This document shows, one piece after another, positions 7,732-31,043 of a DNA stretch of 64,000 bases. The translations under genes and the position numbers were made by a program. The stretch is from a virus (lineage: Duplodnaviria > Caudoviricetes): positions 1-64,000 of the IMG/VR virus record IMGVR_UViG_3300031994_000071; one strand, written 5' to 3'. The notes under the pieces were generated by a model that made no database searches, was not told the DNA's origin, and saw only the letters and a list, made by a program, of their open reading frames with translations. Position 1 is the stretch's first letter; every line of letters starts with the position of its first letter.

Positions 7732-9045
7732 ATGGCAAACAAACCTTTAGCAAACGCTGCTGTCGTTTCGTCCATGCTTAAGTCGAACTGTCTTCTTGTC
7801 GAGATCGGCGGTGCCATCCGCCGTATCTCGATGGAGGACTTTGAGACTGCCATGAACGAAGGGCAGGCAGAACTCCTCCACCAGGTAGCGTGGGGATTCC
7901 CTCTTAAGGATGCTACCCAGACCAGCCCGGCCTGGGGCATGATTGGCAACATCGCAGCCTATCAGTCCTACAAGGCGAAGGTAGGCCGGTATCTCATGGA
8001 TACCAATGGCCGTGCGGCAAAGTTGCACAAGAACAATTCCGGCGTGTTCGCGGACGGAACGGCCCTTGACGAGACGAAGGGATCCGTGGTGGTCATCGCT
8101 CCGCGCCTGTACTTCCTCGTCCAGACCGATGCTGAGACGAACATCCCTTACCTGTGGGCGTCCGAGTTCCCTATCTCCGCTCACTACCTGGCAAACTGCG
8201 ACAACGGAAACCGTATGTGCATCGGCGCCTATAAGGGTTCCATCTCCAGCGGAAAACTTGTGTCTCGCTCCGGTGTTGACTTCGATACTTCGAGCAAGAC
8301 CATCCAGGGCTACTTCAATGCGGCCCAGTCCTTCGGTGTCAACTGGGGCCTGGAAGACTACGACTTCCTCCGCTGGTTTGAGATTATGTGCCTGTCTGAG
8401 GCTAACGGCAATGCCAACGCTCAGGCGAGTCTCGGCCAGGGCCTTGGCGGTGCTGCCGGTTTCGACTGGGGTACGGTCAACTCATCCACTACCCTCAAGA
8501 AGACCGGTGCTACGAAGGGCCTTGGCGACGAATCCGGCACTGTGGCTGTTTCTGGAGCCAATGCTGATTCCACCCATGTCTCCGTGCTCGGCATTGAGGA
8601 TAAGTGGAATCTCCAGTGGGAGTTCGTTCAGGGCATCTTCTTCGGCAACAGCGGCAATGCCGCTCAGGACGGAGACGAGGTGTACATCTACAAGGGCAAC
8701 CGCCTGCCTTCCGCTTCCGAGTTGGCATCACACCCGGACGGTGAGTTCCGCGAACTGACCAGGCTGACCACAAGCGGCTACGCCAAAGTAATGACCAAGG
8801 GCGAATTCTTCGACATCATCGCCACCTCCCTCGACGGAGGCTCCTCGAACGTGTCCTGGTCCGATTACTTTTATGGCAACACCACAGGCCAGGTCTGCCT
8901 TGTCGGCGGTGACTCGGCTGACGGGTCGGGGTCGGGGCCGCTCTCCGTGTACTCGAGCATCGCCTGGTCGTTCGCGTACTCGGACTTCGGCGCCCGCCCT
9001 GCATATTATGGTCCTGTGACCATTGTAGATGGCGCTGACCTATAA
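7732..9045 (+). CDS. DGR target 1: probable receptor-binding/adhesin protein with C-terminal C-type-lectin-like variable region
   Basis: C-terminus (VCLVGGDSADGSGSGPLSVYSSIAWSFAYSDFGARP) is encoded by VR1; IGAYKG and GIEDKWNLQWEFV motifs are typical of CLec-fold DGR targets. Confidence 0.9.
   Translation: MANKPLANAAVVSSMLKSNCLLVEIGGAIRRISMEDFETAMNEGQAELLHQVAWGFPLKDATQTSPAWGMIGNIAAYQSYKAKVGRYLMDTNGRAAKLHKNNSGVFADGTALDETKGSVVVIAPRLYFLVQTDAETNIPYLWASEFPISAHYLANCDNGNRMCIGAYKGSISSGKLVSRSGVDFDTSSKTIQGYFNAAQSFGVNWGLEDYDFLRWFEIMCLSEANGNANAQASLGQGLGGAAGFDWGTVNSSTTLKKTGATKGLGDESGTVAVSGANADSTHVSVLGIEDKWNLQWEFVQGIFFGNSGNAAQDGDEVYIYKGNRLPSASELASHPDGEFRELTRLTTSGYAKVMTKGEFFDIIATSLDGGSSNVSWSDYFYGNTTGQVCLVGGDSADGSGSGPLSVYSSIAWSFAYSDFGARPAYYGPVTIVDGADL
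8892..9005 (+). repeat. DGR variable region VR1
   Basis: 114 nt copy of TR; 17 mismatches counted, all at TR adenines. Confidence 0.97.
9008..9023 (+). promoter_or_regulatory. DGR target-recognition hairpin downstream of VR1
   Basis: ATGGTC-CTGT-GACCAT, 6-bp stem with 4-nt loop starting 3 nt after VR1. Confidence 0.65.
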
Positions 9046-9102
9046 TGTATTAACCAGTTCTTTGAAACACCCTTGCAATTAAGCAAATCCACGAACGATA
9101 AA

Positions 9103-9586
9103 GCGCGGGGCAGTCGCCCCAAAGCGGCTGCAACCGCGCCGAATTCGTGGTAGGTAGGAGGGGGTATAGTACGCTCGGTGGTTCCAGTTCATTCGGTCTG
9201 CCTTGTCGGCGGTAACTCGGATAACGGGTCGAAGTCGGGGCCGCTCTACGTGAACTCGAACAACGCCTGGTCGAACGCGAACTCGAACATCGGCGCCCGC
9301 CATACAAAGTGAATACCCTGGTTTCTCGTTTTGCCGGATAGATACCGGCCAGCGAACCCCCTCAGCCTTGACCCCGGCGGCAGGTCGCGCCGGAGAGTCA
9401 GAACATCTCGAATGCGGGAGAGCGGCCCGGAGTATGGGCCTGCGAGCGGGGCTAATGTAGGTTTGGCCGAGCGTGTAGTGACCGTGAGTAAGCGTTTTGT
9501 AATCGCCGAAGTGTCACTCCGATGGCAACTCTCGAACGTCCCGGGCGGAATCACTATTGCAGGGAACAAAAAAATGCTTACCTTTG
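9103..9586 (+). ncRNA. putative DGR TR-containing RNA with structured flanks
   Basis: Hairpins 9107-9120, 9124-9137 and 9333-9349; long-range pairing of 9488-9498 with 9571-9581. Confidence 0.55.
9195..9308 (+). repeat. DGR template region (TR)
   Basis: Non-coding, AAC-codon-rich master copy of VR1 and VR2, located between target and RT. Confidence 0.97.
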
Positions 9587-9587
9587 T

Positions 9588-10415
9588 ATGACGAAACGTG
9601 TAGGGTACATACTTGAGAAGGTCGCTGACGAGGATAACTTGCGGTTAGCCATCAAGCGGTCCCAGCGGGGAGGGAAGGCGAAGCGGTCCGCACAGATCCG
9701 TGCGGTGAACGCCGATATCGAAGGGACGGTCAAGAGACTGCGCCACATGATACTGGAACTTGACTTCCCGGAGCATGAGAGCCGTAAGATGCAGCGCAGG
9801 ACCGACCGGGGAAAGACCCGTGACCTTGAAGATGAAAAATATGACCCGTGGAAGGTAATGGCTCATGCCATCATGCAGGTCACAGAACCCTACATCAATA
9901 AAAAGATGATTGCAGACACGTCCAGTTGCATCAAGAAACGAGGATGCCTGTACGGAGTTCGGAGAGTGAAGAGGCTGATGCGGCGCTACCCGGACCACAT
10001 CTATTTTTCACAATCCGATTGCAAGAAATACTACCAGGCTTTGGACCCGGAGTATATGGTAAGGGTGTTTCGGCATTGGTTTAAGGACAAGAAATTTATA
10101 AGGCTGATTGAAATATGCGTGCTGGACTACTATTGCGGGGACGAGATAATGCAGATGTTGGAAGATGAACGAGAAAAGAAGACGCGGAGTGCGAATTGGC
10201 TCATACGCAAGCGGGATGATTGGGAACCTCGCCCATTTAGAGATAGACCACATCCTCACAGAAAAGTACGGGGCAAAGATTCAGCGGAACTGCGACGATC
10301 TGATCATCTTCGGGCGCACGAAGGCAGAGGTGCGATTCCTTCTGAACGTGTACAACCATCTGTGCGAGGAGAGGGGAATGGTAGTGAAGGCAAACAGTTT
10401 CTACGGCGCGATTAA
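9588..10415 (+). CDS. DGR reverse transcriptase, part 1 (N-terminal/fingers, motif A)
   Basis: ADEDNLRLA, HAIMQV, DTSSCIKKRG, QSDCKKYY motifs; homology ends near 10140; ATG follows TACCTTTG box at 9579-9586. Confidence 0.9.
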   Translation: MTKRVGYILEKVADEDNLRLAIKRSQRGGKAKRSAQIRAVNADIEGTVKRLRHMILELDFPEHESRKMQRRTDRGKTRDLEDEKYDPWKVMAHAIMQVTEPYINKKMIADTSSCIKKRGCLYGVRRVKRLMRRYPDHIYFSQSDCKKYYQALDPEYMVRVFRHWFKDKKFIRLIEICVLDYYCGDEIMQMLEDEREKKTRSANWLIRKRDDWEPRPFRDRPHPHRKVRGKDSAELRRSDHLRAHEGRGAIPSERVQPSVRGEGNGSEGKQFLRRD

Positions 10416-10584
10416 GGGACATGGGAAGAAAAGACGAAGGAAGCGGCAGAGGGGGCCGGTACATCGACTTTCTGGGCTATCAGTTCAGTCAGGACGATCA
10501 GAGGCTCCGCAAGTCGATAAAGCAAAAATTCGCAAAGAGCATGGCCCGCGTCAAAAGCCGAAAAAGAAAAAAGCAACTCACTGA
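10165..10584 (+). CDS. DGR reverse transcriptase, part 2 (palm, catalytic xCDD)
   Basis: GVRIGSYASGMIGN...DH...RNCDDLIIF in the +1 frame relative to part 1. Confidence 0.9.
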   Translation: MNEKRRRGVRIGSYASGMIGNLAHLEIDHILTEKYGAKIQRNCDDLIIFGRTKAEVRFLLNVYNHLCEERGMVVKANSFYGAIKGHGKKRRRKRQRGPVHRLSGLSVQSGRSEAPQVDKAKIRKEHGPRQKPKKKKATH

Positions 10585-11032
10585 CAGTTACAGAGGCTGG
10601 TGCATGTACGGCAGGTGCCGGAACCTCTGGAAAACAATAACAGGACAACCACTTATGGGATTCGCTGACAAGGGAATATCTATCGAACAGGCCAGCACGA
10701 AGGACGGCAAGAAGTTCTTCGAGTGCCGCAAAGGAACCATTATGGAGGTGCTGAATCAGCGCCTGTCTGTGCTTGACTTTGAGGCTAACGTCCCGACGCC
10801 GGATATTCACGACCCGACGAAGATGAACTACGACCGCTACATGCTCATGGTTCAGAAGGAGGACGGCGAGAAAATCAAGTTCACCATCAGTTCCTTCCAG
10901 ATGAAGAACATTCTGGACGAGTGCCGGAAGGCAGAGGATGCTGGCAACAAGGTGTTCCCGGTCGAAAACGTGGGCATCGCCCGCGTGGATCTTGGTAGAG
11001 GAAAATTCACTTACAAATTCATAGACTTATGA
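10421..11032 (+). CDS. DGR reverse transcriptase, part 3 (thumb) fused to a C-terminal domain of about 125 aa
   Basis: IDFLGY...RLRKSIK...SYRGW thumb motifs in the +1 frame relative to part 2; internal ATG at 10655. Confidence 0.88.
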   Translation: MGRKDEGSGRGGRYIDFLGYQFSQDDQRLRKSIKQKFAKSMARVKSRKRKKQLTDSYRGWCMYGRCRNLWKTITGQPLMGFADKGISIEQASTKDGKKFFECRKGTIMEVLNQRLSVLDFEANVPTPDIHDPTKMNYDRYMLMVQKEDGEKIKFTISSFQMKNILDECRKAEDAGNKVFPVENVGIARVDLGRGKFTYKFIDL

Positions 11033-11379
11033 AAGTTTACGCTGATTACAACGGGGAAGTCCCCTCTGGCGTAGTGGTGGAGCGCGAAGGCGCCATCACG
11101 CGCATCTTCTTTGACTACGGCACTGAAAGCCGCGAGGAAACCGAACTGGAGGAGGCCCGCACCCTCCTGGTGTGCGAGAACGTGGACGTCACTGGTTCGA
11201 CTGAGTATGATGCCATCGTGACGGCCATCGTGCGCGACAAATACTCTCAGGACCGCGTAGAGGCTATCCTGGCCAACGGCTCCGACACGGAGGCCCACGC
11301 GAAGGAACTCCAGGCTTTCCAGGAATGGCGAGCCAAGGCAAAGCGGATTGCTCATGCGGTCATTGATTCTCTGGCTTAA
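11029..11379 (+). CDS. hypothetical protein, possible tail-fibre assembly/chaperone-like
   Basis: ATGA overlap with RT part 3; upstream of tail fibre. Confidence 0.6.
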   Translation: MKVYADYNGEVPSGVVVEREGAITRIFFDYGTESREETELEEARTLLVCENVDVTGSTEYDAIVTAIVRDKYSQDRVEAILANGSDTEAHAKELQAFQEWRAKAKRIAHAVIDSLA

Positions 11380-30514: not shown

Positions 30515-31043
30515 AATAGAAGTCCTTGAAGATGTCAAAGAACTGCTTGCCAGCGTATCTGGCGAGTTCCCCTGATTTGAATGCAAGGCGGGCGCCGAGG
30601 TGCGAGCTCGCGAGCGACCAGGCGCTGCGCGAGTCCACGTAGAGCGGCCCCGACATCGACCCGCGATCCGAGCAACCGCCGACAAGGCAGACCGAAGGTT
30701 CCAGTTCCTTCCGCCTGGATGCGCTCAGGCTCTCCCACTCGGACTTGGTGTAGGCGTAGTAGTAAGGGTAGTAGCGATACTCATCCTCCTTGAACGTGGG
30801 CTTCCAGCCTTCGTTGAGGGCGGCAACGATGATACGCATCTTGAGGTAGGCCAGGACGTCTTTGTCCATGTTCTCCGTCTCGTTCTCGGCCAGCCACTCC
30901 TCTTCGCTCTTGCCGGTCACTTCGCGACACGCATCGTCAAAGGTCTTGATGCGCTCCATGATGTTATCATCTACCAGGACGTAGGCGCCGTCCTTGAATT
31001 TCAGTGCTTTCCCTTCCGGGATTTCAATGGTAACTTTTTTCAT
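30498..31043 (-). CDS. DGR target 2: 181-aa early protein carrying VR2
   Basis: MKKVTIEIPEG...ERIKTFDDAC...AYLKMRIIVAALNEGWKP...VCLVGGCSDRGSMSGPLYVDSRSAWSLASSHLGARLAF; real start at 31043. Confidence 0.92.
   Translation of the reverse strand: MKKVTIEIPEGKALKFKDGAYVLVDDNIMERIKTFDDACREVTGKSEEEWLAENETENMDKDVLAYLKMRIIVAALNEGWKPTFKEDEYRYYPYYYAYTKSEWESLSASRRKELEPSVCLVGGCSDRGSMSGPLYVDSRSAWSLASSHLGARLAFKSGELARYAGKQFFDIFKDFYYDGVL
30580..30693 (-). repeat. DGR variable region VR2 (remote)
   Basis: 114 nt reverse-strand copy of TR; 18 mismatches counted, all at TR adenines. Confidence 0.97.

Follow-up and report, generated by a model that had tools for sequence, protein, structure and literature searches.

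A diversity-generating retroelement reverse transcriptase in three overlapping frames of a Quimbyviridae-like phage: comparative evidence bearing on a proposed natural split of the enzyme

How does a phage obtain a working reverse transcriptase (RT) from a gene that changes reading frame twice? The question is raised by the window studied here, a stretch of 64,000 nucleotides of a Caudoviricetes virus (positions 1 to 64,000 of IMG/VR record IMGVR_UViG_3300031994_000071), in which the RT of a diversity-generating retroelement (DGR) at 9588-11032 is spread over three open reading frames (ORFs), each +1 relative to the preceding one. An earlier note, made from the letters of this DNA, had described the arrangement and left frameshifting and a split enzyme side by side. 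From a comparison with relatives of this gene, we consider it slightly better than an even bet that the RT is a naturally split enzyme of three polypeptides and not the outcome of two frameshifts. The wider claim, that the whole gut-phage RT clade including LoVEphage and Quimbyvirus would be a natural three-chain enzyme with separately translated fingers, palm and thumb, seems to us evenly balanced. The positions that the earlier note had given all hold: the three RT ORFs, each in +1, both copies of a GAAAAGA motif and a stop at 10413-10415. The parts and the two proposed internal starts are the following.

9588 to 10415, plus strand: RT part 1 (frame 0), fingers and motif A; matches phrog_1423 positions 95-274
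10165 to 10584, plus strand: RT part 2 (frame +1), motif B, catalytic DD and motif D; matches phrog_1423 positions 282-356, with a weak RVT_1 match
10421 to 11032, plus strand: RT part 3 (frame +2), motif E (GR-IDFLGY from 10454), thumb and C-terminal domain; matches phrog_1423 positions 366-518
10165 to 10167, plus strand: junction 1 ATG, proposed part 2 start codon; present in 11/12 clades and 18/20 lineages
10421 to 10423, plus strand: junction 2 ATG, proposed part 3 start codon; present in 10/12 clades, with an ATG in the open stretch in 20/20 lineages

At the level of the layout, the three parts align one after the other with the RT profile phrog_1423. Part 1 begins with the ATG at 9588, in the frame of an ORF that spans 9522-10415, and closes with a TAA (10413-10415); it is under selection up to ~10173-10180, and the remainder is an unconserved out-of-frame tail. 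The conserved portion of part 2 ends with a basic KRQRG peptide (10441-10455), and an unconserved tail follows here too. This three-frame layout is far beyond chance and recurs in every intact relative examined.

Relatives were gathered from viral, metagenome, metagenome-assembled genome (MAG) and assembly contigs, which gave ~45 contigs in 20 lineages with part 1 identities of 28-90%. The +1,+1 frame order is kept in every intact relative, down to 28% part 1 identity. Since the same frames recur in ~45 contigs and 20 lineages, the layout reflects neither decay nor assembly error, and assembly indels are a very unlikely cause of the three frames. A tree of the RTs leaves the split and unsplit forms unresolved at depth and does not decide on a single origin of the split.

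A few relatives depart from the intact layout. Three of them (L026, L046 and L047) have no RT catalytic core and retain the RT ends; because the core is lost, this suggests that their DGR copies are dead or reliant on an RT supplied in trans. Another (L019) has a stop inside part 3, which is thereby truncated. In a further contig (L014, positions 950-990, relative position ~596 along the RT gene), one G is lost from a GGGG run and parts 1 and 2 are fused in frame; this contig has 2x coverage and is 1.1% diverged from L015, and the loss may be genuine or may come from a read error.

The points at which selection changes frame were located by asking, among 12 clades, which codon phase carries most of the nucleotide variability along the RT gene. 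The variability peaks in the third position of frame 0 up to relative position ~585 (window ~10173), in the third position of frame +1 from ~590 to ~865 (window ~10453), and in the third position of frame +2 from ~866 onward. Purifying selection thus acts on all three RT parts. At junction 1, it moves from frame 0 (...ER-x-KK) to frame +1 (RRG-V-R-I-G) within ~4 codons, and the single-ORF relatives likewise carry RG at this place. At junction 2, frame +1 is selected through the basic KRQRG, which is synonymously variable, and frame +2 is selected from the G-R that precedes IDFLGY. The KRQRG of the window ends ~11 codons past the junction 2 ATG, a distance of 7-17 codons across lineages.

Two observations belong to these same tracts. 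The KRQRG peptide (10441-10455), sometimes as a variant, is common to all split lineages examined and missing from the unsplit relatives, and it may serve in docking, in nucleic-acid binding or as a translation signal. The end of the frame-0 tail (...CANW) was considered as a homologue of the YCxW found in some unsplit relatives; we rejected this homology because the residue at the C position (S, G, R or C) changes with the unconstrained third base of a frame +1 Gly codon.

No other out-of-frame ATGs of the gene are as well conserved as the two at the junctions. Fifty alignment columns hold a +1-frame ATG and only 3 of these are kept in at least 6 of the 12 clades; the junction ATGs are two of the 3, at 11/12 for junction 1 and 10/12 for junction 2. 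When we asked for a new-frame ATG (that is, in the frame that follows the junction) in an open stretch just upstream of the conserved core, it was present in 18/20 lineages at junction 1 and in 20/20 at junction 2, and the same requirement was satisfied at 20% of 7121 control positions in the same genes. New-frame stops never fall between a junction ATG and the conserved core, and in 6 lineages one directly abuts the junction 1 ATG (TAG ATG or TGA ATG). Both junctions therefore have, as far as alignments can tell, a separate conserved start and a frame that is open through the core, as in a split gene.

The junction ATGs are embedded in NAT-GNN codons of the old frame, the one that precedes the junction (NAT-GAR at junction 1). 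The old-frame residue at the ATG varies (D/N/Y at junction 1 and H/Y/N at junction 2) and NAT is the minority codon choice in the genome (35-45%), so selection acts on the ATG itself. Two lineages (L016 and L018) are without the usual junction 2 ATG and have a replacement 6 codons upstream, created by a TAC to TAT change that is synonymous in the old frame. Two others (L020 and L033) are without the junction 1 ATG; their open frames are longer and contain a GTG or TTG upstream. The earlier note had named simple pseudogenisation as the outcome to expect if junction positions were not kept among relatives; the alignment of homologues keeps the junction ATGs, and pseudogenisation of that kind is not borne out.

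The surroundings of these ATGs are also conserved in character, as a purine-rich, weakly structured tract at the junctions, and, of the 40-nt windows listed for the RT gene, those that hold the two ATG regions are among the four with the least structure. In this phage, only 9/53 ORFs have a Shine-Dalgarno (SD)-like motif upstream. With so few SD-like motifs, internal initiation at an unstructured purine tract is plausible.

At the structural level, we used as a frame the predicted model of P0004, the nearest single-ORF relative (mean predicted local distance difference test, pLDDT, of 82.5). Its best match is the Bordetella DGR RT (8ub7; E 8e-18, target TM-score 0.86, 25% identity). This best match to bRT, together with the colinear cover of parts 1-3 by phrog_1423, places the RT in the DGR clade. 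In the P0004 model, junction 1 comes directly after helix 183-198, where the loop with the lowest confidence in the RT core begins (its 201-210 block has a pLDDT of 68), and some homologues are without the entire excursion at this junction; junction 2 falls between strands 287-291 and 300-302. The modelled break points thus lie outside helices and strands, as would be expected of a split gene. A chain break would be easily tolerated at these sites. The model speaks for the feasibility of a split, and it fits both the split and the frameshift explanations.

The activity of the enzyme can be judged from the template repeat (TR) of the cassette and its variable repeats (VRs).

7732 to 9045, plus strand: DGR target gene 1 (tail protein), an ORF of 437 aa with a phrog_5302 match (E 7e-34) and VR1 at its 3' end
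8892 to 9005, plus strand: VR1, with 17 mismatches against the TR, 17/17 at TR adenines
9195 to 9308, plus strand: TR, 114 nt with 26 A, pairing with VR1 and VR2
30580 to 30693, minus strand: VR2, the remote second target, with 18 mismatches against the TR, 18/18 at TR adenines

The earlier note had described the changes in both VRs as adenine-only, and this was confirmed by the counts of 17/17 and 18/18. The adenine-only relation of TR and VRs identifies the element as a DGR, and because VR1 and VR2 changed at TR adenines only, the RT worked recently. When the VRs of relatives were compared with their own TRs, the changes were also almost exclusively at adenines.

Motif B of this clade does not follow the DGR signature [LIV]GxxxSQ: it reads IGSYASG or IGAYISG, with SG instead of SQ, and the window has IGSYASG (10186-10220). 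The SQ is retained in deeper split lineages (L025, L033, L040 and L043). The DGR of the window is active despite SG for SQ.

Signals of programmed frameshifting were sought across the same 20 lineages. No shared shift site was found at either switch point, and the sequences there differ by lineage; the lineages also have in common neither a stop codon where the shift would occur nor an SD-like element at a constant spacing. Old-frame stops drift 8 to 93 codons past junction 1, and the part 1 stop lies anywhere from relative position 624 to 876. Consensus RNA folding downstream gave 0.0 kcal/mol for junction 2 and -2.7 to -3.9 kcal/mol for junction 1, where it forms a weak 4-bp stem, and an Rfam scan of 8800-11200 returned nothing. 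In these alignments, we could therefore recognise neither a conserved shift site nor a conserved stimulator of the kind that a programmed +1 frameshift would be expected to have. Consensus folding of the RT gene yielded a sole conserved hairpin (~10591-10635, -8.5 kcal/mol), which may be a by-product of the protein sequence, as the part 3 peptide encoded there is highly conserved.

Several candidate causes of a shift were tried and set aside. A hungry-codon signal at AGG or CGG does not hold, since both codons are common in the genome: each makes up 17% of the Arg codons, and many are in frame inside the same tracts. A frameshift-suppressor or otherwise odd tRNA was rejected as well, the only tRNAs in the whole genome being Phe(GAA), Met(CAT) and Leu(AAG). 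A prfB-like shift at the TGA within ATT-GAC of motif E was discarded because this TGA occurs in about half of the lineages and is set by the choice of Ile codon.

Three details in the earlier note fared no better. It had seen possible coupling between the part 1 stop and the part 3 ATG, which are 5 nt apart in the window; this coupling is rejected because the part 1 stop drifts among relatives over the range given above, often far from the part 3 ATG. The GAAAAGA copies (10173-10179 and 10428-10434, 5 and 4 nt past the junction ATGs) had been taken as a junction motif; the motif is not conserved among relatives, and its 12 copies in the window are close to the 11.4 that chance predicts. A +1 slip at AAA-AGA, just past the junction 2 ATG, cannot be the main route because the old frame is selected for ~11 more codons, through the end of KRQRG. 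Thus, of the choice that the note had left open between frameshifting and a split enzyme, the conserved junction ATGs favour the split, whereas the coupling, the GAAAAGA motif and the AAA-AGA slip drop out of the argument.

The split enzyme that we suggest would be made as follows. Piece 1, with the fingers and motif A, would start at the ATG at 9588; piece 2, with the palm, motifs B-D and the catalytic DD, at the ATG at 10165; and piece 3, with motif E, the thumb and the C-terminal domain, at the ATG at 10421. Translation of each piece would begin separately, at an ATG of its own; the purine-rich and weakly structured surroundings of the two internal ATGs would suit the largely SD-independent initiation of Bacteroidota. 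We infer that the pieces, once initiated in this way, would assemble non-covalently into one polymerase, and selection would not act on the out-of-frame tails in which parts 1 and 2 end. A split of this kind accounts for all the observations, the ATGs included.

Several points weigh against a split enzyme. Its support is purely comparative, and the lineage counts overstate independence because the lineages share ancestry. The relatives without a junction 1 ATG (L020/21/22 and L033) still show adenine-only VR changes and would have to start at GTG or TTG, or use a different mechanism. The catalytic Asp residues would be on two different chains, and we know of no naturally split RT. Moreover, two junctions that are both +1 are what a single shared frameshift mechanism predicts, and the absence of a shared motif does not exclude frameshifting, because possible sites for tRNA re-pairing, differing by lineage, abound in purine tracts.

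These last points lead to the explanation by two programmed +1 shifts (or -2 slips or short hops) near 10173-10183 and 10453-10457, which would give one RT of ~480 aa and which we judge unlikely, if well worth keeping in view. Such a product would be colinear with the RTs of P0004 (477 aa) and Hankyphage, both single ORFs, and the sharp change in the frame of selection at both junctions, with little overlap and in the same direction, speaks for it too. Old-frame NGG codons overlap a new-frame Gly codon at both switches, KRQRG stands right before the switch at junction 2 and is absent from unsplit relatives, so that it could be a nascent-peptide signal, and the fusion in L014 makes a joined part 1-2 reading at least encodable. 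Against this, no conservation over the 20 lineages is seen for a shift site, a stop, an SD-like element at a constant spacing or an RNA structure; neither AGG nor CGG is rare, and the phage has no unusual tRNA. Spontaneous frameshift errors being infrequent, two shifts in a row with nothing to stimulate them would leave almost no product, and the conservation and replacement of new-frame ATGs would have no role, with the junction 2 ATG 7-17 codons upstream of the switch. A mixture, in which internal initiation goes along with occasional frameshift fusions or each junction has its own mechanism, would make sense of a junction 2 ATG that is universal vs a junction 1 ATG that is missing in two active lineages, as well as of the in-frame fusion in L014. 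We regard it as improbable, since it is less economical and no positive evidence was found for any shift site.

The frames could also be restored in a subpopulation at the DNA or RNA level, by slipped-strand indels in A/G runs or by transcriptional slippage, as an on/off switch. Both junctions do lie within purine runs, and in L014 a GGGG run is one G shorter than in its near-identical relatives. The runs are short (2-7) and not conserved, a frame-changing variant was seen in only one of the ~45 contigs (the one at 2x coverage), and two simultaneous events would be required, which makes this explanation very improbable. As for a decaying pseudogene or an assembly artefact, some relatives do hold dead RTs, with core deletions (L026, L046/47) or a truncated part 3 (L019). 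This idea is effectively refuted by the recurrence of the same frames in independent assemblies at 28-90% identity, by the purifying selection that codon-phase variability reveals in all three parts, and by VR changes that are adenine-only or nearly so, here and in relatives.

The three-frame layout itself has already been published. The RT of Quimbyvirus lies in three overlapping frames and was read as two programmed frameshifts without a test (Benler et al. 2021, Microbiome 9:78, PMC8008677); the earlier note had pointed to this report, which does say what the note attributes to it. The same study also showed adenine-specific VR variation (PMC8008677). In the literature, we found no later paper testing the mechanism of the three-frame RT. 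The phage of the window is a distant relative of Quimbyvirus, the comparative evidence is the new part, and the mechanistic reading given here, separate initiation, differs from the published one of two frameshifts.

Quimbyvirus and LoVEphage (e.g., Bacteroides phage BI-TP1, PQ571265) share with the window an RT in three overlapping frames, +1 then +1, two VRs of which one is in a tail gene and the other remote on the other strand, a genome of ~75 kb and a Bacteroidales host; in BI-TP1, ATGs are also present at both junctions. The window thus presents the Quimbyviridae-type combination of a three-frame RT with one structural and one remote VR. It differs from them in that part 3 is only 45% identical, and the nearest relatives of this phage come from other metagenomes. 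Quimbyvirus and LoVEphage are each ~95% identical to the prophage of one Bacteroides dorei genome, CP011531.1. The source genome of the window is a complete IMG/VR record of 75,221 bp, and RT relatives occur in Bacteroidales MAGs; the genome size, the part 3 identity and these relatives are indirect indications that the phage is Quimbyviridae-like and of Bacteroidales. A blastn search of the RT region against GenBank phages gave no match, while a search at the protein level did.

The RTs of Hankyphage (Bacteroides phage p00, BK010646) and of P0004 belong to the same RT clade, have the same extra C-terminal domain and lie in a cassette with the same order of target, TR, RT and small ORF. Unlike here, they are encoded in a single ORF, have no KRQRG at junction 2 and have a junction 1 loop of 33-36 residues vs ~18; part 3 is 37% identical to the Hankyphage RT. 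The C-terminal domain in part 3 (10660-11029) is beta-rich, of ~125 aa, with a phrog_19665 match; it is common to the Hankyphage RT and absent from the 328-aa Bordetella bRT. The DGR of Bordetella phage BPP-1 (bRT-Avd-TR RNA, PDB 8ub7) shows the same adenine-specific changes from TR to VR; its bRT is one chain of 328 aa working with Avd, whereas the RT described here has the extra domain and SG for SQ.

Among the known programmed +1 sites, prfB uses CUU-UGA-C with an upstream SD, Ty1 uses CUU-AGG-C and Ty3 uses GCG-AGU-U. The locus resembles them in the +1 direction and in the old-frame AGG or CGG at the switch points, but a slippery P-site codon, a slow A-site codon or stop, and a stimulator at a fixed distance are not conserved here. 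Naturally split polymerases include the split PolB of Methanothermobacter, rpoC1/rpoC2 of cyanobacteria and the archaeal RpoA'/A''. As in the window, one fold is encoded by adjacent ORFs with their own starts and is broken outside helices and strands. Unlike the window, these genes have no out-of-frame overlap with long junk tails, none of them is an RT, and none separates the catalytic palm from motif A.

To our knowledge, a three-chain RT would, if true, be the first naturally split one. It would mean that separate polypeptides can come together to form the active site of an RT, and it would provide natural split sites for engineering and a possible way to tune the amount of enzyme. This is of relevance as DGR RTs are being developed as targeted-mutagenesis tools. 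If two signal-less +1 frameshifts take place instead, they would represent an unusual recoding mechanism in Bacteroidota. LoVEphage and Quimbyvirus are among the most prevalent human gut phages, and the production of their RT has stood as a passing remark since 2021. The induction of LoVEphage-type prophages from Bacteroides and Phocaeicola strains in culture (PMC12629997) now makes the mechanism directly testable.

Finally, some minor features of the cassette and of one relative can be described. No ORF lies between VR1 and the TR (9046-9194). No avd-like ORF was seen in the cassette, and the neighbouring ORFs gave no Avd match in Pfam or PHROG, by family searches only. An ORF of ~116-133 aa on the 3' side of the RT (window 11029-11379) has no family match and is conserved in all relatives, the unsplit ones included. 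One relative (L052:2001-3314) was tried as a case of non-overlapping RT ORFs and rejected as such, since its RT is in a single frame with an in-frame TAG. This TAG falls exactly at the Q of the ...S-Q of motif B, which suggests that this phage reads TAG as glutamine.

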